From Candidatus Omnitrophota bacterium (GTDB lineage: Bacteria > Omnitrophota > Gorgyraeia > Duberdicusellales > 4484-171), in the NCBI GenBank assembly GCA_021735655.1, contig JAIPGM010000001.1, positions 256,001-320,000 on the forward strand: 64,000 bases of DNA, in the 5' to 3' direction. The notes under the pieces were generated by a model that was given only the letters and a program-made list of their open reading frames with translations, searched no databases and was not told the origin of the DNA. The position numbers and the translations under genes are program-made. Positions 1-30,524 of the stretch are shown here, one piece after another. Every line of letters begins with the position of its first letter. Positions within the stretch are counted from its first letter, which is position 1.

Positions 1-640
1 GATAAGCAAAGAAATGAAGAAACGAAATATTAAAATTGAGTGGTCTTGTAGATCTAGGGTAGACGTAGTCGATGAGGATATAATTAAAGAGGCTAAATCT
101 ATAGGATGTAGACAGATATTGTTTGGGATAGAGTCGGCAGACCAACAAGTGCTACAAGGAATCCAAAAAAAAATAAGCATTGAAAAAGTTAAGGACAGCA
201 TTAAGCTTTGCAGGAAATACAATATTTTAACTATGGGTTTTTTCATGATCGGAAACCCCGGAGAAACCAGGGATAGCATAAATAGATCAATTAAATTCGC
301 AAAAGATCTAGGCTTGGATTTTGTGCAGTTTTGCAGGGCAATTGCTAAACCTAATTCAGGATTAAACGAGATACTGAAAAGTAAGACTGGTAAGGATTAT
401 TGGAGCGACTATATGCTTGGTAAGGAAAAGGAACGAAGGATGTTAACTCCTTGGGTTGACCTATCCCAAGAGGAGATAGAATATTATACAGTTAAAGCCT
501 ACCGTAGTTTTTACTTTCGACCTGTGCATATTCTCAAGATTACCTTAAAAGTAAAATCTTTTTCTGAATTTGTTAAGTATCTCCGGGTTGGATTACGGAT
601 GCTTTTTGGAAATAAAAAAGAATATGACCTTAAAAGATAA
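1..640 (+). CDS. B12-binding radical SAM protein, C-terminal part (5' end outside window)
   Basis: Reading frame is open from position 1 (no stop before the Met at 14). C-terminal motifs typical of class B rSAM enzymes: FGIESADQQVL, FMIGNPGETRDSI, LTPWVDLSQEEIEYY. Confidence 0.6.
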   Translation, partial: ISKEMKKRNIKIEWSCRSRVDVVDEDIIKEAKSIGCRQILFGIESADQQVLQGIQKKISIEKVKDSIKLCRKYNILTMGFFMIGNPGETRDSINRSIKFAKDLGLDFVQFCRAIAKPNSGLNEILKSKTGKDYWSDYMLGKEKERRMLTPWVDLSQEEIEYYTVKAYRSFYFRPVHILKITLKVKSFSEFVKYLRVGLRMLFGNKKEYDLKR

Positions 641-1616
641 ACTTCATTCTTTCAATTGTATGTTTAAAGTAAGGTTTTTAAAAAAAAGAATACCTTTGGC
701 GGTCCGTCTTCAGGTTACAAATCGCTGTACATTACAATGTAAATATTGCAATCTTTGGAACACAAAAACTGAAGAATTCACCAAAGAAGAAATATTTAGT
801 CTTATCGATCAATTAGCCGTTTTGGGGGCTAAAAGAATTTCTTTTAGTGGCGGAGAGCCGTTGCTAAGAAAAGATATAGGTGAGATCATAAGCTATTGCC
901 GAGAAAAAAGTATTTATCCTGAAATGAATTCCAATGGCACATTAGTGCCTGAAAGAGTAGATGAAATTAGTAACTTAGATTTTCTAAAATTGAGTCTAGA
1001 CGGGCCAAAAGAAATACACGATTTATTACGGGGCAAAGGTTCCTATGGACAGGTTCTAGCGGCTGCTGATTCTGTTTCTAAGAAGGGGATGAATTTTGGT
1101 TTTGCCACGACTTTAACAAAGTATAATATAGATCATCTTGATTTTCTTCTTGCTATAGCAGAAAAGTACAATACGATAGTGGCTTTTCAGCCTTTAAAGC
1201 AACTCTATCGAGGGATAAGTGACATTTCTAATTTAGCGCCATCTCAGGATAAATTTAAAAAGGCTATTGATAAGCTTATCCAAACTAAGAAATCCGGTAA
1301 TAGGCATATGCGTAATTCCCTTCGCGGACTTAAGCATATTTATAATTGGCCAAAATATAAAAAACTTAGATGCTGGTCGGGGCGGCTTTTTTGTATTATT
1401 AATGCCGATGGTGAGCTATTTCCTTGCGATAGAATTAATTATAATTCTCCGCTCCCGAATTGTAAAAAACAGGCCTTAAAGTTAGCTTTAGATCAGTTAC
1501 CTCAAGCGCATTGTTCGGGATGCGGTTTTTGTGGCTCTTTAGAGCTAAATTATCTTATGAATTTTAAACTCGATATTATTTCTTCGATAAGAAAGATATT
1601 AGATAAACAAGAATAA
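624..1616 (+). CDS. radical SAM/SPASM-domain protein, paralog A1
   Basis: KKRIPLAV..TNRCTLQCKYC (CxxxCxxC), FSGGEPLLRKDI, C-terminal Cys cluster (C..PCD...CSGCGFC). Start moved to ATG 624 (MTLKDK...) by alignment with paralog N-termini; the ORF track begins at 570. Confidence 0.8.
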   Translation: MTLKDKLHSFNCMFKVRFLKKRIPLAVRLQVTNRCTLQCKYCNLWNTKTEEFTKEEIFSLIDQLAVLGAKRISFSGGEPLLRKDIGEIISYCREKSIYPEMNSNGTLVPERVDEISNLDFLKLSLDGPKEIHDLLRGKGSYGQVLAAADSVSKKGMNFGFATTLTKYNIDHLDFLLAIAEKYNTIVAFQPLKQLYRGISDISNLAPSQDKFKKAIDKLIQTKKSGNRHMRNSLRGLKHIYNWPKYKKLRCWSGRLFCIINADGELFPCDRINYNSPLPNCKKQALKLALDQLPQAHCSGCGFCGSLELNYLMNFKLDIISSIRKILDKQE

Positions 1617-1626
1617 AGAAGGTTAT

Positions 1627-2916: not shown

Positions 2917-2918
2917 TC

Positions 2919-4196: not shown

Positions 4197-4208
4197 GGAG
4201 GTTAACAA

Positions 4209-4388
4209 ATGAAAAGAAAAACTAGTTTTAAACAGAATAAAGAGATTCTGTGGCAAATATTCTTTTTGATTAAAGAAAATAAGAAATGGTGGTTACTGCC
4301 TATATTTTTAGTATTAGTAATTTTAGGTTTATTTGTCAGCTTGACAGGAAATCAATCTATTTTGCCTGCAGTTTACGCTTTATTTTAA
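4209..4388 (+). CDS. small membrane protein (59 aa), DUF5989-like
   Basis: ORF just below the track cutoff: MKRKTSFKQNKEILWQIFFLIKENKKWWLLPIFLVLVILGLFVSLTGNQSILPAVYALF. It has the KKWWL..P single-TM pattern I recall for the DUF5989 family. GGAGG lies upstream. Confidence 0.45.
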   Translation: MKRKTSFKQNKEILWQIFFLIKENKKWWLLPIFLVLVILGLFVSLTGNQSILPAVYALF

Positions 4389-4403
4389 TATTACTGAAAT
4401 AAA

Positions 4404-4592
4404 ATGGCAACATTATTAAGAAAAGTTATTGCTTCTGTTGTTTGTTCTATAGCATTGCTATTGCCGCATAGACTTAGAATTATCTATTGCGAGATACTTG
4501 GCTGGTCGATGCAATTAATCTTTTGGGCTTATATTTCTATACTTAAATTTATAATAAAGTCACTTAAAGTGGGTAAAATTAAAACGCAATGA
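4404..4592 (+). CDS. small hydrophobic protein (62 aa), translationally coupled to the downstream PP-loop ATPase
   Basis: ORF whose stop overlaps the next start (ATGA at 4589-4592). Strongly hydrophobic. No recognisable domain. Confidence 0.3.
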   Translation: MATLLRKVIASVVCSIALLLPHRLRIIYCEILGWSMQLIFWAYISILKFIIKSLKVGKIKTQ

Positions 4593-5425
4593 AAGAGCTT
4601 GTTATTTTATACTCTGGCGGAACAGATTCAACCTGTGCCGCAGCTTTAATGGCTAAAGAGTTTGATAAGATCCATTTATTATCTTATACACGTTTTGGTG
4701 TATTTTCGATAGAAAATTCTAAAAAAAATGTCGAAAGGCTTGTAGAAAAATTCGGTAAAGATAAGTTTATTCATAAAATAATCGATGTAGATAAAATATT
4801 TCGAAAGGTATCGTATTCTAACTACATGCATAATCTTAGAAAACATAAGTTTGTTATGCTTACGATGTGTGGTTTGTGTAAAATAACTTTGCATATTCGT
4901 TCTTTAATGTATTGCTTAGACAATGATATAAAGTATGTGTGTGATGGTGTGGATAAAAGCATGGTTTTATTCCCAACCCACATGAGGGAGGTAGTTGGCT
5001 TAATCAAAGATATGTATTTTCGTTACGGAATTATCTATTCGTTGCCAGTATATGAATGTGGCACCCCTAGAAAAATAGGATATTTTGATAAATATAAATT
5101 AGATTTAAACATTTCAGAGCCAGATAATTTCGCTGTTGATTCTGAGTCGAACAATCCTACAACTGGTGAAATATTGCATAAAATGGGCATTTTTCCTTCG
5201 GATAATATTAAAGGAACAAAGCTTGATCATCAGATGCAGTATAGATGTTTTCAATTTATATTAACTTATATATTAGCACTTTGGTATTATTTGCCAAAAG
5301 ATGGTTATGAAAAATATAAGGATGTGTGTATAGAATTCTATAAAGAAAAGATAAATTATTTTTACCCTTTGTTAGATGAATATTTTAATAAAAAAGAAAG
5401 CAGTAGCCTAGCTAGATTGCGATAA
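4589..5425 (+). CDS. PP-loop ATP pyrophosphatase (adenine-nucleotide alpha-hydrolase superfamily)
   Basis: N-terminal SGGTDST PP-loop (SGGxDS), as in QueC/LarE/asparagine-synthetase-type enzymes. Cys cluster CGLCKITLH...C. Confidence 0.6.
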   Translation: MKELVILYSGGTDSTCAAALMAKEFDKIHLLSYTRFGVFSIENSKKNVERLVEKFGKDKFIHKIIDVDKIFRKVSYSNYMHNLRKHKFVMLTMCGLCKITLHIRSLMYCLDNDIKYVCDGVDKSMVLFPTHMREVVGLIKDMYFRYGIIYSLPVYECGTPRKIGYFDKYKLDLNISEPDNFAVDSESNNPTTGEILHKMGIFPSDNIKGTKLDHQMQYRCFQFILTYILALWYYLPKDGYEKYKDVCIEFYKEKINYFYPLLDEYFNKKESSSLARLR

Positions 5426-5486
5426 AATTTAAAAATAACGAGCCAGTGTGCAGAATTTGCTAAGGATAATAATTTAAATTAAGCCG

Positions 5487-7466: not shown

Positions 7467-8846
7467 ATGAAACAGATTGAAACCGAAGTGCTTATTCTTG
7501 GTGGCGGGTTGAGCGGGCTAATAGCCGCAGAGCTTTTATCTAAAGAAAGAAAAAAAATATTTATTTTAGAAAAAGAGTCTGTATCCGGTGGTTTAGCAAC
7601 GACAGTTCAATTCGAGGGCTTTAAGTTTGATATCGGAGGGCATAGAGTTTGTTTTAATAAGTCAGAGAATATAAATTATTTTAAAGATATCCTTGGTGAA
7701 AAAAAGTTTTTATTTTTGAAGAGAAAAAGCAAGATCATGTTTAACGATAGATATGTAAATTACCCCTTGAGCATCGGTACCGCATTTAATGTAAAAAAAA
7801 TGCATTTATTAAAAATAGCTTTTGATAGGCTTGGTGTGTATTTAAAAAGACAAAATAACTTGACTCCAGATAATTTTGAAGATTGGATAAAGATACATTA
7901 CGGGAAAACATTGTACAATATGTTTTTCAAGGAATATACAGAGAAAGTCTGGGGCAGGCCGTGTGGCGAGCTTTCTTCTAGCTTGGGGATAAGGAGAATG
8001 GGTAGTAAAAAACTATCAAAATTAACTAAATGTATTTCTAGGGGTGACGATGCTTTCAGGGAAAGCGCCCGCTCTTTTTATTACCCTCAAGAAGGAATGG
8101 AGGCGTTAATTAATGCTTTCGAGCAAAAATTAGGTACTAGTTGTAATATTCACAAAAATGTTCGAATCGGAAAAATTACCAGGTCTAACGGAGGGCTGAG
8201 CTGTTTATTGGCCAGCTCTAAAGGAGAACCTTACAAGATAAATTTTAAATATATCTTTTCTTCAATACCGCTTACAGAGCTTTTTAAAGCATTATCTATT
8301 GATGGGTTAACTTTGCCTCACAATTTAGAAAAAGGAATACAATATAGAAGTTTAGTTTTGGTAAGTATGATTGTTAATAAGAAAAATATCTCCCGGTGGC
8401 ATTGGTGTTATTTTCCTTCCCGGAAAGTTATATTTTCAAGATTACATGAGCCAAAGTTTTGGAGTAATGGTATGGCTGTAGATGAGAACAAGACATTGAT
8501 ATGTGCAGAAGTGTTTTGTAACTACAATGATTCATGTTGGCTTATGAATGATCGTGACCTAGCAATAGCAGTAAAAGAAGGTTTAAAGATTAATAAATTA
8601 ATCGATAGTGATCAAGATGTAGGTAATTTTTGCGTAAAGAGGATAAGATATGCCTATCCGCTACCAACTTATGAGTATAAAAAATATTTATCCATAGCTA
8701 AAAAGGCACTTAGTTCTTTTAATAATCTTTTTTTAATAGGAAGGAATGGAACCCATTCTTATTTTAATATGGAAGAATGCCTCGATGATGTGAAAGAGAA
8801 GGTTAAATTTTTACATGAAAATAGCAGTAATTATCCCCGTAACTAG
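7467..8846 (+). CDS. FAD/NAD(P)-dependent oxidoreductase (amine-oxidase / UDP-galactopyranose-mutase-like fold)
   Basis: N-terminal Rossmann dinucleotide motif LILGGGLSGLIAAELL followed by LEKE. Confidence 0.55.
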   Translation: MKQIETEVLILGGGLSGLIAAELLSKERKKIFILEKESVSGGLATTVQFEGFKFDIGGHRVCFNKSENINYFKDILGEKKFLFLKRKSKIMFNDRYVNYPLSIGTAFNVKKMHLLKIAFDRLGVYLKRQNNLTPDNFEDWIKIHYGKTLYNMFFKEYTEKVWGRPCGELSSSLGIRRMGSKKLSKLTKCISRGDDAFRESARSFYYPQEGMEALINAFEQKLGTSCNIHKNVRIGKITRSNGGLSCLLASSKGEPYKINFKYIFSSIPLTELFKALSIDGLTLPHNLEKGIQYRSLVLVSMIVNKKNISRWHWCYFPSRKVIFSRLHEPKFWSNGMAVDENKTLICAEVFCNYNDSCWLMNDRDLAIAVKEGLKINKLIDSDQDVGNFCVKRIRYAYPLPTYEYKKYLSIAKKALSSFNNLFLIGRNGTHSYFNMEECLDDVKEKVKFLHENSSNYPRN

Positions 8847-9852
8847 ACCAGAGCAGGCCGCTATCTGCGTAGATGCCCTTTCAAAACAAAGTTTTCTTAA
8901 TTCTGAAATTGAAATTATCCTCATTAAAGATAAGGATCAGGTTATAGAATTAAAAAAAACTGATATAAAGATAATTATTATAGAAGAGGAAAATCCGCAC
9001 CCTGCTTTTCGGAGAAATTTAGGAGTAAAGCTAACTAATGCAAGGATATTGGCTTTTTTGGATGATGATACTATACCTTGCTCAGAGTGGCTTAGCGAAG
9101 CAGTTCGATACATCGAGAAAGAATCGGTAGATGGTGTTTGTGGGCCTGAATTGCAGTCGCAAAATAACTTATCACTGGGTTATACTCTGGCCGGGGCAGC
9201 TAATGAGACTTTTTTTGTAGAAGGAGTTGAGCGGATGAATGTTACTAGTGAGGGGCCAGTAAGATTTTATAATATTCGTTTATGTAATGTGATTATGAGG
9301 CGTAAAGTGTGGGAGGCCGTGGGAGGATTCAATGAAATAGCTAATTATCACATTGATGATATCGAGTTTTTTTATTTGGCTTGTAACAAAAAGTACAGGT
9401 TCCATTATATACCGAAGATGCTAGTTCACCATCGGCCAGAACCATTTCCTTTTAGATACCTAAAAAAGAAGTTTAACGAGCGGTTCTATACGGGCATGAA
9501 TGCTATGATGTTTAGGGAGATTTATTCATTGATTCCTCAGATATGGTTTGTATATTTACTATATCCGATCATAATTCTTATTTTTTTATTATTTTTTAGT
9601 AATAGCATGTATATCATGCCATTTTTAGCAATTTATTTTGGGCTAATTTTGTGGTTTTCCTACCCTTGGTTTCGGAAAAATAAAAAGATTTTTATTCTTT
9701 TGCCGATAGTATTTATATCGACGCATATAGTTGAGCTAATAGGTTTTTTAGCAGGTACTTTTTATTTTTTTGTTAACAGAAATTATGGGGATGTAACCGT
9801 TAGGATTAAACAGGGAAGATTAGAAAAATGCTCCGAAAGTTTGACGTTATAA
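8815..9852 (+). CDS. family-2 glycosyltransferase with C-terminal multi-TM domain (cassette copy 1)
   Basis: MKIAVIIPVTRP, LAFLDDDT (DxD-like), VGGFNE motif shared with the GT2 at 21075. Hydrophobic C-terminal third. Confidence 0.6.
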   Translation: MKIAVIIPVTRPEQAAICVDALSKQSFLNSEIEIILIKDKDQVIELKKTDIKIIIIEEENPHPAFRRNLGVKLTNARILAFLDDDTIPCSEWLSEAVRYIEKESVDGVCGPELQSQNNLSLGYTLAGAANETFFVEGVERMNVTSEGPVRFYNIRLCNVIMRRKVWEAVGGFNEIANYHIDDIEFFYLACNKKYRFHYIPKMLVHHRPEPFPFRYLKKKFNERFYTGMNAMMFREIYSLIPQIWFVYLLYPIIILIFLLFFSNSMYIMPFLAIYFGLILWFSYPWFRKNKKIFILLPIVFISTHIVELIGFLAGTFYFFVNRNYGDVTVRIKQGRLEKCSESLTL

Positions 9853-10904: not shown

Positions 10905-10939
10905 TATATTATAATTAATCTATTCATTTTGGAGTGTTG

Positions 10940-21074: not shown

Positions 21075-22058
21075 ATGGATATTTCAGTAATAATTCCATC
21101 GTATCGACCAGCTGACATAAAAGAATGTTTGAAATCTATTTTTGAATCTGATCTTAGGCCTTGTGAGATTATCTTGGTAGATGATTGTTCAACTCTTGAT
21201 TATTTCAGAGAAATAGATAGTTTTTGCCAGATAATTAAGTTGAAAGAACACGTCGGTCCGGCCAAAGCCAGAAATATTGGTGCTTGTCAAGCAAAAGGGG
21301 ATATTTTTTGTTTCATTGATTCCGATGTTAAAATATTTAGCAATACCTTGAGATTAATAAGTGATTCATTTCAATCTTTACCAGAAATTGCTGCCGTTCA
21401 AACTGCATGCACAGAATATTGTAGATTCACGAATTTTGCAAGCCAATATCATAATTTATACCTATATTTTCACATTGAAGCAATCAGGTGTAAATATATT
21501 AGGACTTTCATCGGAAATTGTTTTGCAGTAAAAAAAGAAGACTTTGTTTCGGTAGGAGGGTTTAATGAAAATATTAAAAATGCAAGCGTCGAGGATGGTG
21601 ATTTTGGTATGCGACTGTCTGAGCAGGAAAGAATAATATATCTAAATAAAAACATTAAAATTGAGCACAGAAGTTATATTAAATTACGAGGCGTACTAAA
21701 AAGAATGTTTATTCAATCCCAAGATAAAGTGTATACTTTAATGAAAAATAAAAGTTTATTTAAATTTTCTCCGGATAAAACTCCTCACTCGAAGGAAAAA
21801 ATATTTTCAGTATTATTGTCGCCTTTGTTGCTGATCAGTTCCATTATTTTAATTTTTGCTCCAAAAACGTATGTAATTTTTCTCTCAGCCTTATTGCTAT
21901 ATTTATTGTCTAGCAGGCAGTTTATCTATTTTACCTTGAAATCCAAAGGGATAATGTTTGCAATTAAAGCTGCTGTTTTTTATTACCTTAATTGCTTAGT
22001 TGCTTTCGTTGGCATAACCTGGGGTGTAATCAAGTTTGGGGGGGGTAATATTATCTAA
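21075..22058 (+). CDS. family-2 glycosyltransferase with C-terminal TM domain (cassette copy 2)
   Basis: MDISVIIPSYRP, FIDSDV, VGGFNEN. Hydrophobic C-terminus. A G8 tract lies in the last codons. Confidence 0.65.
   Translation: MDISVIIPSYRPADIKECLKSIFESDLRPCEIILVDDCSTLDYFREIDSFCQIIKLKEHVGPAKARNIGACQAKGDIFCFIDSDVKIFSNTLRLISDSFQSLPEIAAVQTACTEYCRFTNFASQYHNLYLYFHIEAIRCKYIRTFIGNCFAVKKEDFVSVGGFNENIKNASVEDGDFGMRLSEQERIIYLNKNIKIEHRSYIKLRGVLKRMFIQSQDKVYTLMKNKSLFKFSPDKTPHSKEKIFSVLLSPLLLISSIILIFAPKTYVIFLSALLLYLLSSRQFIYFTLKSKGIMFAIKAAVFYYLNCLVAFVGITWGVIKFGGGNII
22038..22045. repeat. G8 homopolymer in the last codons of the GT2 gene
   Basis: Counted directly: 8 consecutive G encoding GGG, 7 codons before the stop. 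Confidence 0.9.
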
Positions 22059-23164
22059 TGCAGTATATTAAACAAATTTTTAAACTGATTAATAAGAAAA
22101 GTGTGAATCCAGAATATGTTACATTTTTTATTACTAATAAATGCAATGCAAAGTGTAAGCACTGCTTATATTGGTCTAGCCTTAATTCAGACGAAAACGA
22201 ATTGTCTTGTGAGGAGGTTAAAAAGATATCGCAAAATATGGGCAACTTTATATTTTTACTTATCACCGGCGGTGAGCCATTCATGAGAGAAGATATTTCA
22301 GAGATTGCTCGTATTTTTTATGAGAATAACAACATTAAAAAACTTTCCCTAGTGACCAATGGCTATTTTACTGATAAAATAATTGGACATACTAAGGAAA
22401 TATTAAGAAGGTGTCCAAAATTACAGTTGAACCTAAGTATTTCCTTGGATGGCATTGGCAAAAGGCACGATGAAATTAGAGGCCTAGAGGGTATTTTTCA
22501 AAGAGCAATTAATACCATTGGCAATCTAAAAAAAGTTCAGAATTCTTATCCGAAATTATCTATTTCAACCGTTTGCTCATTTTCAGTTTTAAATCAAAAC
22601 GATATTTTTGATATTTATCATTACGCAAGGGATGTTCTTAAACTTGATTCATTTAATTGTCCTTTAGTTCGCGGTAATTTAAAAGACAACTCAATAAAAT
22701 CAAGTGATATAGCTATATACAAAAAGCTTTCAGAGGTTGTGAGAGCTGATGTTGTCAGCGGTAAATTAAAAGGGGCCAGCGATCATTTTATATCTAATGT
22801 AATATCTGCGGCTAAATTTATTGCGACAGATTTAAGCGTAAAGACTTTTGAGGCTGACAAATATATAACTCCCTGTTATGCCGGTAAAATAAATGTAGTT
22901 ATTTACCCTGACGGAGGGGTGTTTCCTTGTGAATTGCGAAAGGAAAAGTTGGGAGATTTAAGGACGGCGAATTATGATTTTAAAAAAATATGGTTTTCAA
23001 AAAAATCAAAAAGAGTTCTTGAGAAAATAAAAGAAACTAAATGCCATTGTTTTCATGGTTGTAATATGTTACCTAATGTTTTATATAATTCTCGATATAT
23101 ACCTAAGATGACTGTGAATTATATAAATGTATTATTAAAGAGATCAGGCAATAACTACAATTGA
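22058..23164 (+). CDS. radical SAM protein with Cys-rich C-terminal extension, paralog B2
   Basis: FFITNKCNAKCKHCLYW, TGGEPFMREDI, FPCELR...CHCFHGC. Start overlaps the GT2 stop. Confidence 0.75.
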   Translation: MQYIKQIFKLINKKSVNPEYVTFFITNKCNAKCKHCLYWSSLNSDENELSCEEVKKISQNMGNFIFLLITGGEPFMREDISEIARIFYENNNIKKLSLVTNGYFTDKIIGHTKEILRRCPKLQLNLSISLDGIGKRHDEIRGLEGIFQRAINTIGNLKKVQNSYPKLSISTVCSFSVLNQNDIFDIYHYARDVLKLDSFNCPLVRGNLKDNSIKSSDIAIYKKLSEVVRADVVSGKLKGASDHFISNVISAAKFIATDLSVKTFEADKYITPCYAGKINVVIYPDGGVFPCELRKEKLGDLRTANYDFKKIWFSKKSKRVLEKIKETKCHCFHGCNMLPNVLYNSRYIPKMTVNYINVLLKRSGNNYN

Positions 23165-23165: not shown

Positions 23166-24107
23166 ATGTTGACTAAAATTAACCTTCAAAAAATAAAATC
23201 TTTTACGATATCTATTGTTACGATAATTATTTTCGTTGTATTGTTTTCTAAGATAAATATTTATCAATTTGCCGAGCATCTCAAAGAGGCAAATCTATTT
23301 TTTTTATTATTAGGAGTCGGTATATTTATATTTACCGAATTATTTATTTCTTCTGTTCAGTGGGTAGAAATACTTCGACAGCTCAATTGCCATATTAGCT
23401 TGAAGGAAGCAATGTTTATAAGGATTGGAAGTATTCCGGCAAAATCGATGTTGCCATTTCGAAGCGGAGAGTTGTTAAGAGCTTTTTATCTTAAAAAACA
23501 GAAGCAATTTCCAGTTTCTTTGGGGGTTGGTTCTTTACTCTTTCAGCTCATAATTAATCTTTTAGTTTTAATTAGCATTATGTCGTCTGCTTACATTTAT
23601 TTTTTTAAATTAGATAACATTATTTTTTTCTCATTAATCTTAGCATTTCTATTCATTTTTTGTATATTATCATTTAAATTTATAAATAAGTTTATTCTTT
23701 ATTTGGCTAAAAAAGTAAATTTTCAATTTTATGAGTCTCTAAAGGCTTTATTCAATATTCACAGGAATTTTAAATTAAAAAGTTTAGTGGTGATACTTTT
23801 TTATTCGGTTATTATGTGGGTCGGTGAATTGTTTATATTTATTTTTATATTTAAGACAGTCGGTTTAGATATACCACTATACGCGATACTTATATTTGTA
23901 CCTTGGACAATCATAATAAGTAATATCCCCATAACCATTTCGGGTTTAGGGACAAGGGAGGCTAGCATAGTTTTACTTTTTTTACAATTTGGCTCACCTG
24001 AAAAATTATTGAGCAGTGGAGTGCTTATGTCATTTATCCAATTTGTTTTACCATTAACATTCAGTTTGTTATTCCTTAGAAAGTTTTTGAAAAAGATTAT
24101 GGTCTGA
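23166..24107 (+). CDS. UPF0104 / lysylphosphatidylglycerol-synthase-TM-domain (flippase-like) membrane protein
   Basis: 8+ TM helices. Conserved LPFRSGELLRAFYL-type segment. Confidence 0.5.
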   Translation: MLTKINLQKIKSFTISIVTIIIFVVLFSKINIYQFAEHLKEANLFFLLLGVGIFIFTELFISSVQWVEILRQLNCHISLKEAMFIRIGSIPAKSMLPFRSGELLRAFYLKKQKQFPVSLGVGSLLFQLIINLLVLISIMSSAYIYFFKLDNIIFFSLILAFLFIFCILSFKFINKFILYLAKKVNFQFYESLKALFNIHRNFKLKSLVVILFYSVIMWVGELFIFIFIFKTVGLDIPLYAILIFVPWTIIISNIPITISGLGTREASIVLLFLQFGSPEKLLSSGVLMSFIQFVLPLTFSLLFLRKFLKKIMV

Positions 24108-24238: not shown

Positions 24239-24982
24239 ATGAGCAAGATAATAGCAATTATCCCTACTTACAATGAGGCTGGGAATATTTTACCTTTGTT
24301 AGGTAAACTTTTTTCTCTGGCAAGTAATATTTCTGTTTTGATAGTGGATGATAGCTCGCCTGACGGGACATCTCAAATAGTAATAAAGTTGCAAAGAGAA
24401 TATCCTAAGCTACATTTAATAACTCGGGCATGTCGTCAAGGCTTGGGCAGTGCTTATATAGAGGGGTTTAAATATGCCCTAAAGAAAGGTTACGATATAA
24501 TAATTCAAATGGACGCAGATTTATCTCACGCTCCGCGTGAGGTGTTAAAGATGATCGCTTTAATTGAGAGGTATGATCTAGTTATTGGCAGCAGATATAT
24601 TAAGGGTGGAGGAGTCTACGATTGGTCATATCCGAGAGTTTTGTTGAGCCGCTGGGCAAATATTTTTTCAAAAATATTGCTTAGGACGCAGGTCTATGAC
24701 TTAACCAGCGGATTCAAATGCTTGCGAAAGAATGTATTGGAAGAAATAGATTTCCAAACTATATCTTCCAGAGGGTATGCTTTCCAGATTGAAATGGTTT
24801 TTAGAGCTTTAAGGAAAGGCTTTAAGGTAATTGAGCATCCAATTATCTTTCAAGGAAGAAGATATGATAAGTCTAAAATGTCTTTGCCGATTGTCATAGA
24901 GGCTTTTATTAGAGTTTTGTGTTTGTTTTTTAATCGATTCTCCAGGGGGCGCAATACAGGATCAAATATTATCAATAAATAA
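24239..24982 (+). CDS. family-2 glycosyltransferase, dolichyl/polyprenyl-phosphate hexosyltransferase-like
   Basis: IIAIIPTYNEAGNI, VDDSSPDGT, QMDADLSHAPRE. Confidence 0.7.
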   Translation: MSKIIAIIPTYNEAGNILPLLGKLFSLASNISVLIVDDSSPDGTSQIVIKLQREYPKLHLITRACRQGLGSAYIEGFKYALKKGYDIIIQMDADLSHAPREVLKMIALIERYDLVIGSRYIKGGGVYDWSYPRVLLSRWANIFSKILLRTQVYDLTSGFKCLRKNVLEEIDFQTISSRGYAFQIEMVFRALRKGFKVIEHPIIFQGRRYDKSKMSLPIVIEAFIRVLCLFFNRFSRGRNTGSNIINK

Positions 24983-25133
24983 AGGCCTTTCGACTTAAAG
25001 GTTAGGGAAATTTTTTAAGAAATACGATTAAAAAAGTATTTGATTCTATATAGAATATGATAAAATTAAGGGATAAAGAAGTGTGTTTTTATATTAGATG
25101 CACAATTTACAATGCTAAAGGGAGGTGTCCAAA

Positions 25134-25886
25134 ATGATTAGGACCATGGAAACTTTATGTTTTGCGGCTTTGATTTTTGCAATAACATTTGCTTTTACTC
25201 CATTAGCTTTAGCTTATGATTTAAGTAAGTATTACCCTTTAAATGAAGGTGATAGTTGGGAGTATTTAACAAGCGGAATAGGCTACGTTGAGGGTGGAGC
25301 AGATAAGGCAGAATTTTCCGATATGATTGAAGTAGATAAAATAGAATCAAAAGAATCTATTTCCGGTAAAAGGACCATGGTAAAGGTTTCGGGAGCCTTA
25401 GAGGAAAAAGAATGTTTGGCTGTAGACTCAGAAGGACTAAAACTGTACAAGTTAATAGATGGTCCAGGTGGTTATGATATATTTACCCCGCCGTTCATGC
25501 AGTTGGCAAATCTTGCAGTTGGAGAGAGTAAAACTTTCTTAAGCAATGCAATCGGGTATGGTGATCGCTCAAGTGAAGGAGCCAGACTGAATACAAATAC
25601 GATAACATTGGAATCAGTGGAAAGAGTAGAAGTTCCCGCAGGATTATTTGATGATTGCCTTAAATTTACGTCGACGGGTGAAAGAGCCTACGCAGATGGC
25701 AATTATGAAAATATTGAGTCTACCGTTTGGCTTGCTTTAGGGGTAGGTGTAGTTAAGGCTGATTATATTTATATCGAACATGATTTTTCTTCAGGCGAGG
25801 ATAGTACTACTACCAACAAGCGAAATTTGGTTTCAGCAAAGGTAAATGGTCAACAAATCGGAACTCCAAAGGAAAGTCAAGAATAA
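25134..25886 (+). CDS. secreted hypothetical protein (signal peptide)
   Basis: ATG 25134 with AAGGGAGG 9 nt upstream. Signal-peptide-like N-terminus with AYD cleavage-like site. Confidence 0.4.
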   Translation: MIRTMETLCFAALIFAITFAFTPLALAYDLSKYYPLNEGDSWEYLTSGIGYVEGGADKAEFSDMIEVDKIESKESISGKRTMVKVSGALEEKECLAVDSEGLKLYKLIDGPGGYDIFTPPFMQLANLAVGESKTFLSNAIGYGDRSSEGARLNTNTITLESVERVEVPAGLFDDCLKFTSTGERAYADGNYENIESTVWLALGVGVVKADYIYIEHDFSSGEDSTTTNKRNLVSAKVNGQQIGTPKESQE

Positions 25887-25899
25887 TAAGGCCAGCGTG

Positions 25900-25934: not shown

Positions 25935-25986
25935 TTGCAGTTTCATAAATCCTTCTATACGATTCAAATTCAATATTACAATTTAT

Positions 25987-25995
25987 GGGGGGGGG
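25987..25995. repeat. G9 homopolymer, intergenic, about 120 bp upstream of the GT4 gene
   Basis: Counted directly: 9 consecutive G in an AT-rich intergenic region. Confidence 0.9.
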
Positions 25996-26116
25996 TTAAT
26001 CCGATCAACATGTGAAGTTCCTCATGAATTGCAGTCTTATCAAAATACGCATAAACATAAAATACGAATTAATAAAGATGTTAAGCTATATATAGTTGAT
26101 AGTTGTAGGGCGAAAA

Positions 26117-27220
26117 ATGAAAAAAATTCTGGTTTTTAACGCTGGAGCTTATATCTACGGAGCAGAAAGAGGGTTAATTAATTTTATTAGAACTTTGTCT
26201 GATAAATTTGAAATAACGGTAGTCTTGCCTTCCCAAGGCCCCCTTTCTAAAAAAATCGAAAAATTAAATGTATCTTTAAAAATATTTCCGATACCGATCC
26301 TTAAAATCTCGCTTTCACCGCTATATTATATTTTTTTTCCTTTTCATTTTATTTTTTCCGTTATTTATTTTAGCATTTATGCAATCCGCAAAGATATTGA
26401 AATAATTTGTAGTAATTCTTTACTTTTAGTTTTTCCGGCTATTGTTGCTAAATTTACCAAAAAAAGACATATCTGGTATTTAAGAGAGTTTCTGCCTTCT
26501 AGTTTTTTGAATAAAGCTCTAGGGGCATTCATTATCAGATTTTCAAACCAAATAATATGTCAATCTCAAGCTATTAGGGAAGCCTTGCTTGGCAAAGAAA
26601 GGGGCATTATTATTTATGAACCTTTAAATGCTACGGACTATAAAATCTACAAATCAGATCTTGCAAGAAGTGAGCTAAATATCCCTATAAAATCAACGGT
26701 TATTTCAATAATTTCTCGAGTGCATCCTTCTAAGGGACAGTATGAATTTATAGTTGATATTAAAAGGACATTAAAGAAAAATCCCAACATCCTTTTGGTT
26801 ATCGCCGGTGATATATCGCCGAACAATTTAAGAAATCGTTTATATAAAGCAAAAATAGAAAAATTGATAGAGGGGGATACTCTAAAAAATGTAGTCCTTT
26901 TAGGTTTTAGAGATGATGTTGATAGGATACTTTCTTTAAGCAATATTTGCGTTTTTCCTTTTAAAAGAAAAGAACCGTTTGGAATTTCTGTAGCTGAAAG
27001 TTTAACTTTTGGTAAAATAACTTTTTTTCCTCAGGTTGGAGGTCTAAAAGAAGTACGTGATATCTTTGGTCGGGGAAACGATTTTAGTATAGATAGGATT
27101 TGTGAGATAGCCTCAAACTTTGAACCAGCACGAGTAGAAAAGCTCCAAGAATTATATATCCCTGAAGAGCTTTCTATCGCGACATACAAAAATAAACTTA
27201 TTCCTATTTTTGAAAATTAA
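26117..27220 (+). CDS. family-4 (GT-B) glycosyltransferase
   Basis: C-terminal EPFGISVAE (EX7E motif), GT-B-like layout. ATG at 26117 chosen; the track starts at TTG 26096. Confidence 0.6.
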   Translation: MKKILVFNAGAYIYGAERGLINFIRTLSDKFEITVVLPSQGPLSKKIEKLNVSLKIFPIPILKISLSPLYYIFFPFHFIFSVIYFSIYAIRKDIEIICSNSLLLVFPAIVAKFTKKRHIWYLREFLPSSFLNKALGAFIIRFSNQIICQSQAIREALLGKERGIIIYEPLNATDYKIYKSDLARSELNIPIKSTVISIISRVHPSKGQYEFIVDIKRTLKKNPNILLVIAGDISPNNLRNRLYKAKIEKLIEGDTLKNVVLLGFRDDVDRILSLSNICVFPFKRKEPFGISVAESLTFGKITFFPQVGGLKEVRDIFGRGNDFSIDRICEIASNFEPARVEKLQELYIPEELSIATYKNKLIPIFEN

Positions 27221-28348
27221 ATGAAGCCGTTTAAAAAAAAGATACTTTTTATTATTACCCACCTTGAATTGGGAGGAGCTCAGGGTCAGTTGCTTTTGCT
27301 TGTAAAAAATCTAGATAGAAACAAGTACTCACTGTATTTATCTTCCGGAGACCAGGGCTATCTCAAGGAAGAATTTTTAAAACTCCCATATTTACATATA
27401 AAATTAATTCCGGAGTTGATAAGAAATATTAATCCTTTCTACGATTTTATTGCTTTTTTGAAATTATATTTCTATATCAAAAAAAATAAATTCGATATAG
27501 TTCATACTAATTCCCCTAAAGCTTCTATTTTGGGAAGATGGGCGGCTTATCTGGCAGGCGTAAAAGGTATTATTTACACTGTACACGGTTGGCCTTTTCA
27601 TAAATTCATGAATCCGATAGTGCATTATTTATATATTTTAATTGAAAAAGTGACCGCCAAGATTACAAAAAAGATAATAGTTGTTTCTGAAGCAGACCTT
27701 AGAACAGGAATAGAGAATGAAATCGCCGATAAAAATAGAATTTTTCTTGTTCATTATGGCATAGAAATAGATAAGTTTAATAAGGTGTATGATCAAAGAA
27801 GCGAAATTTTTCCTGGTAATACTGTTTTTACAATCTCTTCGTTTAAGCCTCAAAAGGATATTTTTAATTTTTTGAAATTAGCAAAAATGCTTCTTGATAG
27901 AAATCCTCAGTTGAATTTTATCATAGCCGGAGACGGACCTTTGCGTAAGAGAGTGGAGAAAAGGATAGAGTTACTAGGGCTAAGCGGTAAGGTGCACCTA
28001 AAGGGCTGGTCTGACGATGTTTCTCTTTTATTTAAAATGGCATCGTTGTTTGTGCTCACTTCTTTATGGGAAGGTCTACCAGTGTCTTTGATTGAAGCGG
28101 TTGTATCAGGAGTTCCGGTGGTAGTCACTAATACCGGTGGCATTTTCGATATAGTGAAAAGCGGCAATCAGGGGGTGGTCGTCAATCCAACCAATATTTT
28201 AGAAATAGAGAGCGCTTGTTGGGAAATATTGAAAAACTATGATAATTGGAGTACAATTGTCAGGAATGGCCGGAAAAAGTTAAATTTAAAATATTGGTCT
28301 TTTGCTAGAACGCTGAGAGAAATAGAAAATATTTATGCTACTATTTAA
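27221..28348 (+). CDS. family-4 (GT-B) glycosyltransferase
   Basis: N-terminal LGGAQ, C-terminal EGLPVSLIEAVVSGVPVVVTNTGG (EX7E). Confidence 0.75.
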   Translation: MKPFKKKILFIITHLELGGAQGQLLLLVKNLDRNKYSLYLSSGDQGYLKEEFLKLPYLHIKLIPELIRNINPFYDFIAFLKLYFYIKKNKFDIVHTNSPKASILGRWAAYLAGVKGIIYTVHGWPFHKFMNPIVHYLYILIEKVTAKITKKIIVVSEADLRTGIENEIADKNRIFLVHYGIEIDKFNKVYDQRSEIFPGNTVFTISSFKPQKDIFNFLKLAKMLLDRNPQLNFIIAGDGPLRKRVEKRIELLGLSGKVHLKGWSDDVSLLFKMASLFVLTSLWEGLPVSLIEAVVSGVPVVVTNTGGIFDIVKSGNQGVVVNPTNILEIESACWEILKNYDNWSTIVRNGRKKLNLKYWSFARTLREIENIYATI

Positions 28349-29339
28349 GTTGATAGAGCTGTTAGCGCTTTTCTTTTTTGCTTTTACGCTCAGTATATTT
28401 TTTCTTGCTATTTCAAGAAAGCTATCTTTAAAACACAATCTTTTTATCAGAGATAGAAATATACCTTATATTGGGGGGGTTAGTTTTTCTCTGGTTTTTA
28501 TCATTTGCCTTATTTTATTTTCTTTTATTAAAGCTAAAGTTGTGCCTTTTCAGTTTATTTGGATAATTACCTTTTCATTTATATTGTTGTTGGTTGAGTG
28601 GATAGACGATTTGAAGGATTTAAAGCTTAAGGCCAGAGTCCTGATTCAAATCATTTTTGTATTTTTATTTCTCCTTTACGGAAAGCAAATCCAGATTTAT
28701 TTTTTACCAAACTGGGCTAATTATCTTATTTCTTTTTTATGGATAGTAGGGATAACCAATGCTTTTAATCATCTTGATGTCGCTGATGGGCTATGTGCAG
28801 GTATAGCTTTGATTGTTAGCTTGGCATGTTTAGTGATAGCTTTAAAGACTGGAAGCTTTTTATTGTTTGTTTTTGTTGCTCTTTTTGGGGTTCTTTTGGC
28901 TTTTCTTTTGTTTAATTTCCCTCCGGCTAAAATATTCATGGGTAATGCTGGAAGTCACTTTTTAGGCTTCTTGTTTGCAACCTTAAGCATTTATGGAGAC
29001 TATGCCAGCTTCGATAATATTTTAGCCATTTTTTTGCCCCTGTTGGTTCTAGGATTGCCGATTGTTGACACATTTTATCTCATTGTGGTGCGTGCTAGTA
29101 AGAAAATCTCTCCTTTACGGAAAAGTGATGATCACATCATTTTACGTTATTTGTTAAAGGGCTATTCTTACAAGCGGTCTTTGGCAAGTATTTATTTTTT
29201 AACTGCGGTTTGGTGTTTAAGTGCAATTCTTTTATTGAATGGTCCAGGCCTATGGTGTTTAATTTTTCTGATTATTGCCTTTTTGGGAACAATTCTTATG
29301 ATCATTAAGGCTAATGTCAGTAAATTTTCTAGTTGTTAG
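28335..29339 (+). CDS. MraY/WecA-family polyprenyl-phosphate sugar-1-phosphate transferase (initiating transferase)
   Basis: Signature NAFNHLDVADGL. About 10 TM helices. Confidence 0.75.
   Translation: MLLFKLIELLALFFFAFTLSIFFLAISRKLSLKHNLFIRDRNIPYIGGVSFSLVFIICLILFSFIKAKVVPFQFIWIITFSFILLLVEWIDDLKDLKLKARVLIQIIFVFLFLLYGKQIQIYFLPNWANYLISFLWIVGITNAFNHLDVADGLCAGIALIVSLACLVIALKTGSFLLFVFVALFGVLLAFLLFNFPPAKIFMGNAGSHFLGFLFATLSIYGDYASFDNILAIFLPLLVLGLPIVDTFYLIVVRASKKISPLRKSDDHIILRYLLKGYSYKRSLASIYFLTAVWCLSAILLLNGPGLWCLIFLIIAFLGTILMIIKANVSKFSSC
28473..28479. repeat. G7 homopolymer inside the WecA/MraY-family gene (codons 47-49)
   Basis: Counted directly: ATT GGG GGG GTT encodes I-G-G-V. Confidence 0.9.
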
Positions 29340-30524
29340 TCCGAGGATTATCCACCAGAGAAAAGCTACTTGAGGAATAAAGAAAGAGAAATCGACAATA
29401 TTATGCAGGAGAAACGACAACCCAGCTGCGAATATAGCTAATGATAGTAATGTGTTTTTCGAAGCTATAAGTATTTTTAAGTTCATTCTTACATAATTAA
29501 AAACTATCACTAGCCAGCTTAAAATTCCTATCATTCCAAGCTCACCCCAAATTTGAAGATAAGAGTTGTGGCTATAGCGAGACCCGGGCAAATAAAAATT
29601 GCCTAAACCGACGCCGACAAAAGGGTGTTGTTTGATTATTTCAGTTGTTCCGCGCCAGTAAGCGACTCTTTGGTGAATAGAAAAAAAGGGGTTGGTTATT
29701 TTTTCCGGATTGTTCAGACGTAGATAAAAAACAATTATTGATAATAAGCCGATTACAAGAATAGCGGTAATGCTTTTTTTGTTTATTTTTTTACGCCAAA
29801 ATAGTAGAAAAGGCAACAGACTAAGCAAGGATAACCATCCGCCGATAGATTTAGTAAAGAAGAAGGCAATAAAAGAAATAAGGACGCAAAAAAAGGCCAG
29901 GTATTTATCAAATACCCATTTAGCTTCTTCTTTTTTTTGTAAAAGTAGGCCAAGGCTGATGAAGATTAGTATTATTAGATAACCGGCTAAAAGATTGGGG
30001 TTAATGAAAGGGGCCAAGGCTCTTGATTGCGATAATAGCTCTTTTACAAAATAGTTATTAAATAATGCCCAAAGGCTGTAAATGGCCACAAAGCAGCAAC
30101 TCAGGAGGAGTGTTTTTATCAGAACTATTTGATTGTTTTTTGGGGTAAGCTTAGCGAAGTAAAATAATAACAGAATGATAAAAAAGTCATAAACTTTATT
30201 TAGATTTGATACAAGATCAGAAACAAACAGTGCTGAACCAAATAGGTTTAAGAAAAAAACTATGATTATTAAGTTAAAAAAACTTTTCTTGATATTTTTT
30301 CGGAAGATAAAAATATATAAAAGGCTAGAGCAAAAAATTACAAAATTAACTGTTGAATCAAGCATCCTAGAGCCAAATATCGGCAGAAGCGGGTAAAGGA
30401 AAATACAGCTAACTATAATTTTCCATATTGCTGACTGTAGTTTTAATTTCTGTTTTTCAGTCAGAGGCCTGAGCGGTGAATTAAGTTTATTCGCTATTGA
30501 TTTGGTTAAAGTAATTATTGGCAT
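29259..30524 (-). CDS. O-antigen ligase / Wzy_C-family polytopic membrane protein (ligase, polymerase or O-oligosaccharyltransferase)
   Basis: About 12 TM helices. Periplasmic loop RVAYWRGTTEIIKQHPFVGVGLGNFY resembles the Wzy_C/WaaL motif. Confidence 0.5.
   Translation of the reverse strand: MPIITLTKSIANKLNSPLRPLTEKQKLKLQSAIWKIIVSCIFLYPLLPIFGSRMLDSTVNFVIFCSSLLYIFIFRKNIKKSFFNLIIIVFFLNLFGSALFVSDLVSNLNKVYDFFIILLLFYFAKLTPKNNQIVLIKTLLLSCCFVAIYSLWALFNNYFVKELLSQSRALAPFINPNLLAGYLIILIFISLGLLLQKKEEAKWVFDKYLAFFCVLISFIAFFFTKSIGGWLSLLSLLPFLLFWRKKINKKSITAILVIGLLSIIVFYLRLNNPEKITNPFFSIHQRVAYWRGTTEIIKQHPFVGVGLGNFYLPGSRYSHNSYLQIWGELGMIGILSWLVIVFNYVRMNLKILIASKNTLLSLAIFAAGLSFLLHNIVDFSFFIPQVAFLWWIILGLTTRKFTDISLNDHKNCSQKGNNQKN

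Follow-up and report, generated by a model that had tools for sequence, protein, structure and literature searches.

Here we describe a radical S-adenosylmethionine (rSAM)-rich gene island in a 64,000-nucleotide (nt) window (the whole stretch of DNA analysed) from a Candidatus Omnitrophota bacterium. The island intersperses rSAM genes of four families with genes for glycosyltransferases (GTs), sugar-modifying enzymes and polytopic membrane proteins of envelope-glycan type, and its rSAMs probably carry out sugar or glycolipid chemistry and not peptide chemistry. On balance, we favour a pathway in which they tailor polyprenyl-phosphate-carried sugars without oxygen, after which the products would be flipped and transferred by glycosyltransferases of the GT-C fold. 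The assignment of the most numerous rSAM class, the A-types, to a dehydrogenase role specifically is tentative and may well not hold. To judge from sequence, natural gene fusions provide what we regard as the strongest new evidence that ties these rSAMs to sugars and not to peptides.

An open reading frame (ORF) listing combined with a motif search placed eight complete rSAM genes with a CxxxCxxC motif on the plus strand within positions 555–23164 (Table 1), as had been proposed from the letters of the window alone (hereafter, the original prediction). All eight, together with a fragment at the window edge, match PF04055 (44–107 bits against a gathering score of 29.5; E values of 4e-13 to 2e-30 for the complete genes), which identifies the motifs as a genuine rSAM core. 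No such motif occurs among ORFs of at least 100 amino acids (aa) in the remaining 41 kb (23165–64000). The predicted paralogue classes also stood: five A-types (A1–A5; 35–46% mutual identity), two B-types (B1 and B2; 36%) and one distinct C-type. The edge fragment is indeed the 3′ end of a B12-binding rSAM (B12-rSAM) gene, as its full-length form with PF02310 and PF04055 was recovered from the same contig in the Logan assembly (locus L086), our source for the sequence upstream of the window start; the end of this gene overlaps the start of A1. Further upstream lie genes for a GT-C protein of the PMT_2 type, two 644-aa polytopic paralogues, a third membrane GT2 and a third B-type rSAM. The island, given as positions 1–30524 in the original prediction, is cut by the window start: it continues for at least 9 kb upstream and spans at least about 40 kb, with genes for ten rSAMs, five GT2s and as many as five proteins of GT-C type (three confirmed, two predicted). 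Its genes are packed tightly on a single strand in the operon-like manner first described, and the only minus-strand gene encodes a Wzy_C-family protein. G+C content is 30–35% in the island versus 36–39% in the downstream housekeeping part, which points either to a surface-glycan locus of distinct composition (acquired or fast-evolving) or to compositional bias from genes for membrane proteins.

Three kinds of fusion protein were found in homologous loci. In one (P0324, 737 aa), a DegT-family aminotransferase is followed by an A4-like rSAM; in a second (P0372, 734 aa), an A-type rSAM precedes DegT, the reverse order. Each is represented by several sequence variants on several contigs, in islands that also contain rSAM, B12-rSAM, GT2, PMT_2, DUF2079 and YfhO genes. 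In the third (P0190, 494 aa, 8 contigs), a B-type rSAM is fused to an LPG_synthase_TM domain, mirroring the adjacency of the B2 and LPG_synthase_TM genes in the window (1-nt gap); the gene order at this locus is B12-GT2-B::TM-TM-A-PMT_2/TPR (TM, transmembrane). Two of the metagenome contigs, L170:1-22205 (A::DegT) and L171:1-22214 (DegT::A), are rSAM-dense, and each carries between four and six genes of GT-C type (PMT_2, DUF2079, YfhO). The former also has a GT9 heptosyltransferase-family gene of the lipopolysaccharide (LPS)-core type and an ABC2 membrane protein gene, a hint of an LPS- or O-antigen-like acceptor.

The fusion of a B-type rSAM to an MprF/AglD-type membrane domain would also suit a different substrate. 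In that case the target of the rSAMs would be the hydrocarbon portion of the polyprenyl carrier or of some membrane lipid (modified by C–C coupling, cyclization or methylation) and the GTs would add head groups only. Models for such chemistry are Tes, GrsA/B, Gmm, HpnP/R and the B12 rSAMs of ladderane clusters. The island B12-rSAM gives 129 bits with TIGR04072 (‘lipid biosynthesis B12-binding/radical SAM protein’), and lipid-modifying rSAMs are an expanding class (PMC13459092). We nevertheless consider hydrocarbon modification quite unlikely, as the tightest links are to sugar enzymes (A::DegT in both orders, YdjC and polysaccharide deacetylases, GT2 and GT-C), and a Pfam scan of the island found no isoprenoid, fatty-acid or glycerol-ether lipid-synthesis genes. 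The scores for Tes (45–72 bits against a cutoff of 450) and TIGR04072 (129 against 360) are also far below the cutoffs, so that by curated score the island rSAMs belong to neither family.

The DegT-family pyridoxal phosphate (PLP) aminotransferase encoded next to A4 retains its catalytic lysine (Lys184). It contains a hydrophobic insertion of about 47 aa (residues ~217–267) with an invariant proline (Pro245) and one TM-like segment at 236–254. The insertion is present in P0324 and in all eight locus homologues beside A-type rSAMs, whereas the best solved homologue, a glutamine:scyllo-inositol transaminase (PDB 7b0d), has three residues at this place. A conserved hydrophobic insertion absent from solved homologues suggests that DegT may work at the membrane. 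Its best solved relatives include glutamine:scyllo-inositol and 2-deoxy-scyllo-inosose aminotransferases. The usual supplier of keto-sugars to DegT enzymes is a 4,6-dehydratase of the short-chain dehydrogenase/reductase (SDR) family. The Pfam scan of the island revealed no SDR 4,6-dehydratase or epimerase and no nucleotidyltransferase, and we count the missing dehydratase in favour of an A-type rSAM as the keto-sugar source for DegT.

The associations seen in the window recur in other genomes. The pairs GT2-B, FAD-GT2-B, B12-A and DegT-A are spread over bacterial and archaeal phyla: Omnitrophota, Elusimicrobia, Myxococcota, the candidate phyla radiation (CPR) and DPANN. An Omnitrophota locus (L001) is syntenic with the window in the order SGNH-A2-A3-GT-C-DegT-A4-SGNH-A5-secreted protein. 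Its A proteins are 51–57% identical, each to a different window paralogue (53% and 55% for the A2-A3 tandem); given this one-to-one orthology and the 35–46% identity among paralogues, the five A paralogues are older than the split of the two organisms. The secreted 253-aa protein likewise has a 28%-identical homologue after A5 in this locus. DegT-A adjacency is found in eight loci (the window, with a 5-nt gap, L001, L011, L012, L024, L087, L090 and L005), and SGNH homologues adjoin A-type rSAMs in four (L001, L003, L006 and L090). Orthologues of A1 (50–66% identical) adjoin B12-rSAM orthologues in L087, L088, L006, L010, L014 and L015, often with an ArnC-like GT2 and an LPG_synthase_TM gene; in L087 and L088 the orthologue of the GT2 at 24239 lies upstream of the pair. 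GT2-B adjacency occurs three times in the island and again in L167, in Wolfebacteria (L168, where the whole FAD-GT2-B order of the window is repeated) and in Undinarchaeales (L169, an isolated pair). In all of these the B-type gene comes after the membrane GT2, never before it.

To quantify these associations, we compared 15 A-family loci with 98 control loci around distant rSAMs from the same genome and metagenome contig scans. The scan matches listed are mostly distant NirJ/AhbD/MoaA-like rSAMs, which served as controls, with about 20 true family members. Among these listed loci, 14 of the 15 A-family loci have a glycan-type partner of any kind, compared with 7 of the 98 controls (Fisher p = 6e-12). 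By partner, the counts are 11/15 versus 15/98 for B12-rSAM, 9/15 versus 6/98 for GT2, 5/15 versus 2/98 for DegT, 6/15 versus 0/98 for LPG_synthase_TM and 4/15 versus 0/98 for GT-C. The Pfam tables of single loci agree with this result. An Elusimicrobia contig (JAFGLF010000083.1; L003:1-7818) presents a variant of the theme with a different aminotransferase family: four B12-rSAMs, a DUF2079 GT-C and a class-III aminotransferase (Aminotran_3, not DegT) are encoded upstream of SGNH-SGNH-A-LPG_synthase_TM.

The rSAM families themselves are distant from characterized ones. The original prediction had described A1–A5 as SPASM paralogues; the five paralogues stand, but the label does not. On the Pfam SPASM model (PF13186), A1 scores 19.5 bits against a gathering score of 21.5 and A2–A5 do not match, and only the C-type (59 bits) and B2 (28 bits) pass, B1 failing at 19.6 bits. 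Across 59 members, the A family retains only four invariant or near-invariant C-terminal cysteines (C249, C267, C297 and C300, in the pattern C-x17-C-x29-C-xx-C), compared with five invariant ones in the B family and six in the C-type rSAM, so that B- and C-types also fall short of the seven of SPASM. These scores and the four-cysteine pattern rule out SPASM membership of the A-types, as defined by two auxiliary clusters and the seven-cysteine motif CX9-15GX4C...CX2CX5CX3C...C. The A-types are likely to be Twitch-like, with a single predicted four-cysteine auxiliary cluster; the pattern fits the single cluster reported for BtrN, which has fully cysteinyl four-residue ligation (PMC10337720). 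The predicted A-type model ends in a small C-terminal strand and helix domain, and the A-types score 59–61 bits on the twitch model NF033640 (cutoff 170).

None of the rSAMs reached an NCBIfam curated cutoff, those of every peptide-maturase model included. The A-types score 100–123 bits on the hypothetical PTO1314 family (cutoff 306) and similarly on MftC, NirJ, AhbD, MoaA and PqqE; the B-types 65–92 bits on PapB, HxsB and AhbD; and the C-type 127 bits on a tungsten-cofactor maturase model (cutoff 380). The best NCBIfam match of the B12-rSAM is HpnJ, and HpnH scores are 56–70 bits (cutoff 225). Naming the rSAMs by their top match (PTO1314, MftC, NirJ, AhbD, tungsten-cofactor maturase or HpnJ) was rejected as uninformative by itself, since each protein matches more than 50 families and none near its cutoff. 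In a fold search, the closest solved structure to the A-types is BlsE (16–17% sequence identity), a sugar-nucleoside enzyme (cytosylglucuronate decarboxylase of the blasticidin S pathway), and DesII is also among the matches. By sequence, the best match of the A profile in the PDB is CteB, with BtrN reaching only E ~1e-3; BtrN is the best solved relative of the C-type (55 bits). The A family comprises more than 150 full-length 50%-identity representatives at E < 1e-92 and 4,067 at E ≤ 1e-30, a count that generic rSAM relatives may inflate, and occurs in Omnitrophota, Elusimicrobia, Myxococcota and DPANN archaea (Diapherotrites/Iainarchaeum and Woesearchaeota). Homologues of the B family number 785 and come from Omnitrophota, CPR (Wolfebacteria and Magasanikbacteria), Nanoarchaeota, Woesearchaeota and Undinarchaeales. 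Neither family is annotated beyond ‘radical SAM protein’.

Such matches raise the alternative that the rSAMs are peptide or cofactor maturases, akin to those of mycofactocin or of ribosomally synthesized and post-translationally modified peptides (RiPPs), with a precursor encoded elsewhere and a product glycosylated by MftF-like GT2s. The top NCBIfam matches include MftC (110 bits, A3), PapB, HxsB and CcpM, the membrane-anchored GT2s match MftF (65–78 bits), the A profile finds CteB, and PqqD and ScmC genes lie near an A-type gene in one Diapherotrites locus. We regard this alternative as highly improbable. The maturase scores are two- to nine-fold under the curated cutoffs (MftC 110 against 265, PqqE 92 against 381, PapB 79 against 340, CcpM 66 against 500), in agreement with the original prediction of a sugar, a lipid or a glycan carried on a lipid as their substrate. 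The CxxxCxxC motif starts at residues 29–56 in the complete rSAMs, which leaves no room for an N-terminal RiPP recognition element (RRE) domain; the rSAMs have no N-terminal extension, and Pfam and NCBIfam scans of the island proteins gave no RRE/PqqD match. The fusion partners are DegT and LPG_synthase_TM and not an RRE or a peptidase, and the enrichment of glycan-type neighbours and the recurrent pairs point the same way. We found no precursor-like ORF or peptidase in the ~40-kb island. The earlier statement that no precursor-peptide ORF sits beside the rSAMs therefore holds in substance, except that the 4196–4589 gap is occupied by two small ORFs, a DUF5989 protein and a hydrophobic 62-mer, both membrane proteins.

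Curated scores, the RRE/PqqD search and the search for an adjacent precursor in the island all speak against placing the locus among the sactipeptide, ranthipeptide, PQQ and mycofactocin types of RiPP or peptide-maturase system. A mycofactocin-like system was rejected because MftA, MftB, MftD and MftE are missing, scores are low and the MftF-like GT2s pair with B-types and not with the MftC-like A-types. Clusters from Elusimicrobia that combine a nitrogenase paralogue with many rSAMs (bioRxiv 10.1101/765248) are a different system; no NifHDK genes are present here.

Both GT-C-like membrane proteins of the original prediction were upheld, the PMT_2 protein by Pfam and the 535-aa protein at 16230–17837 by structure prediction and fold search. 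For the AlphaFold model of the latter (pLDDT 92.3), the 29 top-ranked PDB structures (E ≤ 2.6e-3; top TM-scores ~0.5–0.6) are without exception GT-C enzymes, including DPY19, STT3/PglB/AglB, AftA, ALG9/12 and ArnT. Two acidic residues after TM1, D42 and D43, are near-invariant, and one homologue carries DUF2079 (PF09852). As far as a predicted model can, the fold and the acidic residues after TM1 confirm that this protein has a GT-C fold. Pairwise BLAST found no match between it and the PMT_2 protein, and its GT-C identity was settled by the fold search. The two tandem 644-aa polytopic paralogues upstream of the window (L086:2637-6505; 35% mutual identity) have no Pfam family apart from one weak C-terminal YfhO match (E 0.007). 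Weak N-terminal similarity links them to the 535-aa protein (pairwise BLAST E = 7e-4), and they are probably additional GT-C enzymes.

From gene content, folds, fusions and conserved neighbourhoods we infer the following substrates, reactions and order of steps. Five GT2s would load monosaccharides on polyprenyl phosphate, three of them membrane-anchored and MftF/GtrB-like (one encoded upstream of the window) and two DPM1/ArnC-like. At the cytoplasmic face of the membrane, the ten rSAMs, which fall into four uncharacterized families, would then tailor the lipid-bound sugars together with DegT, two deacetylases, the FAD oxidoreductase and the PP-loop enzyme. The products would be flipped by the LPG_synthase_TM protein and transferred by up to five GT-C enzymes (two of the PMT_2 type, one DUF2079-like and the two weakly YfhO-like 644-aa proteins, as predicted) to an acceptor probably built by the WecA-type transferase, the two GT4s and the Wzy_C-family ligase or polymerase. 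Within this scheme, the A-types may perform an oxygen- and NAD-independent alcohol oxidation, or a related redox step, giving a keto-sugar for transamination by DegT. This best-supported candidate was missing from the reactions first listed (C-methylation, epimerization, deoxygenation and crosslinking). In a GenK- or HpnJ-like reaction, the B12-rSAM paired with A1 would methylate or rearrange a substrate of similar kind. The B-types would act at the membrane on the product of the GT2 directly upstream, and amines would be unmasked by the two deacetylases (YdjC and polysaccharide type), as by HpnK and ArnD. Among rSAMs, action on sugar head groups already attached to a lipid has precedents in HpnJ, of the HpnI/K/J pathway, and in the archaeal calditol synthase Cds (PMC13459092; PMC12324291).

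Tailoring could instead precede transfer to the lipid carrier: the rSAMs would act in the cytoplasm on soluble nucleotide-activated (NDP) sugars, and the membrane proteins would serve downstream only. The known sugar rSAMs use soluble substrates (TDP-sugars for DesII, cytosylglucuronate for BlsE, a cyclitol for BtrN), BlsE is the closest fold, and no TM segments were found in the rSAM proteins. In Wolfebacteria, moreover, genes for a nucleotidyltransferase and for three SDR epimerase/dehydratases come after FAD-GT2-B. The window island, however, has neither a nucleotidyltransferase nor an SDR enzyme, a B-type rSAM is fused to a polytopic membrane domain, the DegT partner has a conserved hydrophobic insertion, and the B-types always follow a membrane GT2 and do not precede it. 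We therefore judge the soluble route improbable and prefer tailoring on the lipid carrier.

Several points weigh against this preference, and some against sugar chemistry as such. As no rSAM reaches a curated family threshold, every function is read from gene context. A lipid-linked and not a nucleotide-linked substrate is indicated solely by the fusion to a membrane domain, the hydrophobic insertion of DegT and GT2/GT-C logic, and the nucleotidyltransferase and SDR neighbours in Wolfebacteria would fit NDP-sugar chemistry. The proposed steps leave some of the ten rSAMs without a task, and the acceptor could be LPS, another glycan or a protein. The enrichment partners were found by BLAST to the window's own proteins, which biases the comparison toward phylogenetically close loci. 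In the Diapherotrites locus (L005), PqqD, ScmC and NTP_transf_5 genes lie about 4–6 kb (cassette 2–6 kb) from the A-type gene. That A-type gene itself has GT2, DegT and B12-rSAM neighbours, and the PqqD gene is the only one of RRE type near any family member among the loci listed. On the same contig (JBFMAK010000001.1; L005:12460-17080), NTP_transf_5, B12-rSAM, ScmC, PqqD and another rSAM form what appears to be a separate peptide-type cassette.

As every equivalog test failed, the locus is not a member of the Btr/Des, Hpn/Cds or Arn/Gtr/AglD systems; it resembles a combination of them. In butirosin biosynthesis, BtrN and BtrS combine rSAM oxidation with DegT-family transamination on aminocyclitols, and in desosamine biosynthesis DesII works between DesI and DesV. 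The island shares with these systems, which act on a cyclitol or a sugar, a non-B12 rSAM (with a predicted Twitch cluster) beside a DegT-family PLP aminotransferase, and it resembles them in the best solved relatives of the C-type (BtrN) and of DegT (inositol and inosose aminotransferases) and in the DesII fold match of the A-types. It differs in its rSAM families, in the DegT insertion and in a probably lipid-linked substrate, and its partners are fused or adjacent in a locus for envelope glycans that also has GT2, GT-C and flippase-like genes, unlike those of the antibiotic clusters. BlsE, for its part, belongs to a nucleoside-antibiotic pathway, and there is no sign of decarboxylation in the island.

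The co-occurrence of a membrane GT2, a YdjC deacetylase, a B12-rSAM and an LPG_synthase_TM protein recalls HpnI/HpnK/HpnJ(/HpnL) and Cds, and HpnJ and HpnK are the top NCBIfam matches of the island B12-rSAM and YdjC protein. The scores are, however, below the equivalog cutoffs (HpnJ 179 against 577.6, HpnK 178 against 232.6, HpnI 27 against 310; for YdjC also ChbG-type 172 against 227), and the Hpn pathway has no counterparts of the island A-, B- and C-type rSAMs, DegT or GT-C. There is no squalene-hopene cyclase in the 64-kb window or 10 kb upstream, and HpnH and HpnG are absent from the window. HpnIJKL membership was ruled out by these scores and the missing hopanoid genes, and we retain the pathway as a mechanistic analogy.

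A third likeness, at the level of domain families, is to Arn: the island has an ArnB-like DegT, ArnC-like GT2s, an ArnD-like polysaccharide deacetylase and GT-Cs of the ArnT/PMT_2/YfhO/DUF2079 types. In Arn, GtrABC, CsbB/YfhO and AglD, as proposed here, a polyprenyl-phosphate monosaccharide made by a GT2 is flipped and transferred by a GT-C, and the AglD family itself combines a GT2 with an LPG_synthase_TM domain. To our knowledge, no pathway of these types includes an rSAM enzyme. Sub-cutoff equivalog scores (ArnB 143 against 631; ArnC, NF007986, 150 against 529 for the GT2 at 15479) and the lack of an ArnA-like gene rule out Arn membership, and the scale of the island (five GT2s plus as many as five proteins of GT-C type in one locus) is unusual. 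Other island proteins also fall short of their models: the FAD oxidoreductase scores 257 bits on NF005548 (cutoff 389), GT2m1 78 bits on MftF, its top NCBIfam match (cutoff 280), and the polysaccharide deacetylase 240 bits on TIGR03006, the XrtA-type deacetylase (cutoff 276).

A few antibiotic pathways (BtrN, DesII, BlsE, AprD4 and GenK) and two lipid head groups (HpnJ and Cds) are the known settings of carbohydrate rSAM chemistry. In the literature searched, we found no description of an rSAM-rich envelope-glycan island, in keeping with the original view that this is not a described system, and no case of rSAM chemistry as a built-in multi-enzyme part of polyprenyl-phosphate/GT-C envelope-glycan assembly. 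In an Omnitrophota genome preprint, rSAM is mentioned solely among the Pfam modules of giant proteins. The superfamilies and the pathway logic are familiar; the rSAM families are new, and for their integration into polyprenyl-phosphate/GT-C assembly the literature searched gave no precedent. rSAM-rich glycan loci are widespread in uncultured anaerobic lineages, and the A and B families occur largely in uncultured groups such as Omnitrophota, Elusimicrobia, CPR and DPANN, which probably use their surfaces to attach to hosts. If the proposal is correct, amino and modified sugars can be made under anoxia by an enzymatic route that is new, and there are new glycan structures to seek. The DegT::rSAM and rSAM::LPG_synthase_TM fusions make the question testable, as they offer concrete two-protein systems for assay.

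The pattern of best matches (HpnJ, HpnK, BtrN and the scyllo-inositol/inosose aminotransferases) is compatible with a surface glycan containing aminocyclitol units. A bolder extension, which we think rather unlikely, would give Omnitrophota, CPR and DPANN, mostly anaerobic lineages that are in large part ultra-small, a common and undescribed chemistry, independent of oxygen and NAD, that produces amino, methylated or even carbocyclic (aminocyclitol-like) sugars directly on polyprenyl phosphate. Twitch rSAMs would then be fused to or paired with a membrane-associated DegT, B-types would be paired with GT2 and AglD/MprF-type flippase-like proteins, HpnJ-like B12 rSAMs would contract or methylate the ring, and GT-C batteries would install the products on the cell surface.

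Table 1 Genes of the island, with window coordinates (L086, upstream Logan sequence)
Gene or product	Position	Strand	Basis and remarks
B12-rSAM (class B), full length, 475 aa	L086:8590-10017		PF02310 + PF04055
B12-rSAM, 3′ end	2..640	+	PF04055; C-terminal 212 aa of 475-aa protein
A1, A-type Twitch-like rSAM	570..1616; likely start ATG 624	+	CxxxCxxC at residue 53; PF04055 E 1.4e-24
Two membrane-anchored SGNH/GDSL hydrolases	1627-2916, 2919-4196	+	PF13472; one N-terminal TM segment each
DUF5989 small membrane protein	4209-4388	+	PF19451 E 3e-14; one TM segment; Logan-called gene
62-aa hydrophobic ORF	4404-4592	+	One TM segment; Logan-called gene; last 4 nt overlap next gene
PP-loop ATPase-like protein	4589..5425	+	Weak matches only: QueC, NAD_synthase, DUF7411, WbuX, E ~1e-4
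A2, A-type rSAM, tandem with A3	5487-6464	+	PF04055 E 1.7e-30
A3, A-type rSAM, tandem with A2	6474-7463	+	PF04055 E 3.8e-27
FAD oxidoreductase, amine-oxidase / UDP-galactopyranose-mutase (GLF)-like, PRK07208 type	7467..8846	+	PF01593, PF13450, PF03275
GT2m1, membrane-anchored GT2	8815..9852	+	PF00535, PF13641, PF13632; C-terminal TM helices
B1, B-type rSAM, partial SPASM	9828..10904	+	PF04055 E 4e-13; SPASM 19.6 bits, borderline
Polysaccharide deacetylase (Polysacc_deac_1 + DUF3473)	10934..11764	+	PF01522, PF11959
GT-C, PMT_2 / ArnT-like family	11865..13559	+	PF13231 E 5e-9; ~11 TM segments
C-type rSAM with SPASM domain	13570..14586	+	PF13186 59 bits; PF04055
YdjC-family carbohydrate deacetylase	14609..15466	+	PF04794 E 3e-64
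ArnC/DPM1-like GT2, putative polyprenyl-phosphate sugar synthase	15479..16219	+	PF00535 E 1e-32
535-aa GT-C fold protein, DUF2079-related	16230..17837	+	No own Pfam match; predicted structure + fold search
DegT-family PLP aminotransferase	17855..19072	+	PF01041 E 1e-72; ~47-aa hydrophobic insertion
A4, A-type rSAM	19078-20058	+	Start 5 nt after DegT end
A5, A-type rSAM	20039 or 20066 to 21049	+	PF04055
GT2m2, membrane-anchored GT2	21075..22058	+	PF00535 E 5e-20; C-terminal TM helices
B2, B-type rSAM with SPASM domain	22058..23164	+	PF04055; PF13186 28 bits
LPG_synthase_TM (MprF/AglD-type, flippase-like) membrane protein	23166..24107	+	PF03706 E 1e-38; TIGR00374 59 bits vs cutoff 43
Second DPM1/ArnC-like GT2	24239..24982	+	PF00535 E 1.5e-29
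Secreted 253-aa protein	25125..25886	+	N-terminal signal-like segment; weak DUF3108-like match, sole family match
Two GT4 glycosyltransferases	26096..28348	+	PF00534, PF13692, PF13439
WecA/MraY-family polyprenyl-phosphate sugar-1-phosphate transferase (Glycos_transf_4)	28335..29339	+	PF00953 E 1.5e-32; 8 TM segments
O-antigen ligase / polymerase family (Wzy_C) membrane protein	29259..30524	-	PF04932 E 2e-17
Secreted clan GH-A-like glycoside hydrolase	30613..31899	+	PF02836, PF03198; probably 3′ edge of island

Beyond the rSAMs, Pfam matches bear out most of the gene inventory first given for the island (two GT4s, a WecA-type transferase, an O-antigen-ligase-family protein, DegT, two deacetylases, two SGNH hydrolases and an FAD oxidoreductase). 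The count of three GT2 genes in the window has to be raised to four (at 8815, 15479, 21075 and 24239), and the PP-loop ATPase is a tentative call from weak matches. The DUF5989, 62-aa ORF and PP-loop genes form a trio (4209–5425) between the SGNH pair and A2. At the other end, the WecA-type gene (plus strand, ending at 29339) and the Wzy_C gene (minus strand, ending at 29259) converge with a 3′ overlap of 81 nt. The island ends at ~30.5–31.9 kb and is followed by genes for lysyl-tRNA synthetase (LysRS), a LolCDE-like transporter, McsA/McsB/ClpC, Mla, RadA, IspD, CysRS and MetRS. Scans of the window for tRNA genes and Rfam families found no feature. Each 2-kb bin of positions 1–64000 has a positive GC skew, and nearly all genes lie on the plus strand. 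The McsA/McsB/ClpC-type protein-quality-control operon is best known from Firmicutes; here, in Omnitrophota, genes for a McsA-like protein (UVR motif), a McsB-like protein arginine kinase (ATP:guanido phosphotransferase) and ClpC stand in a row at 36063–40076.

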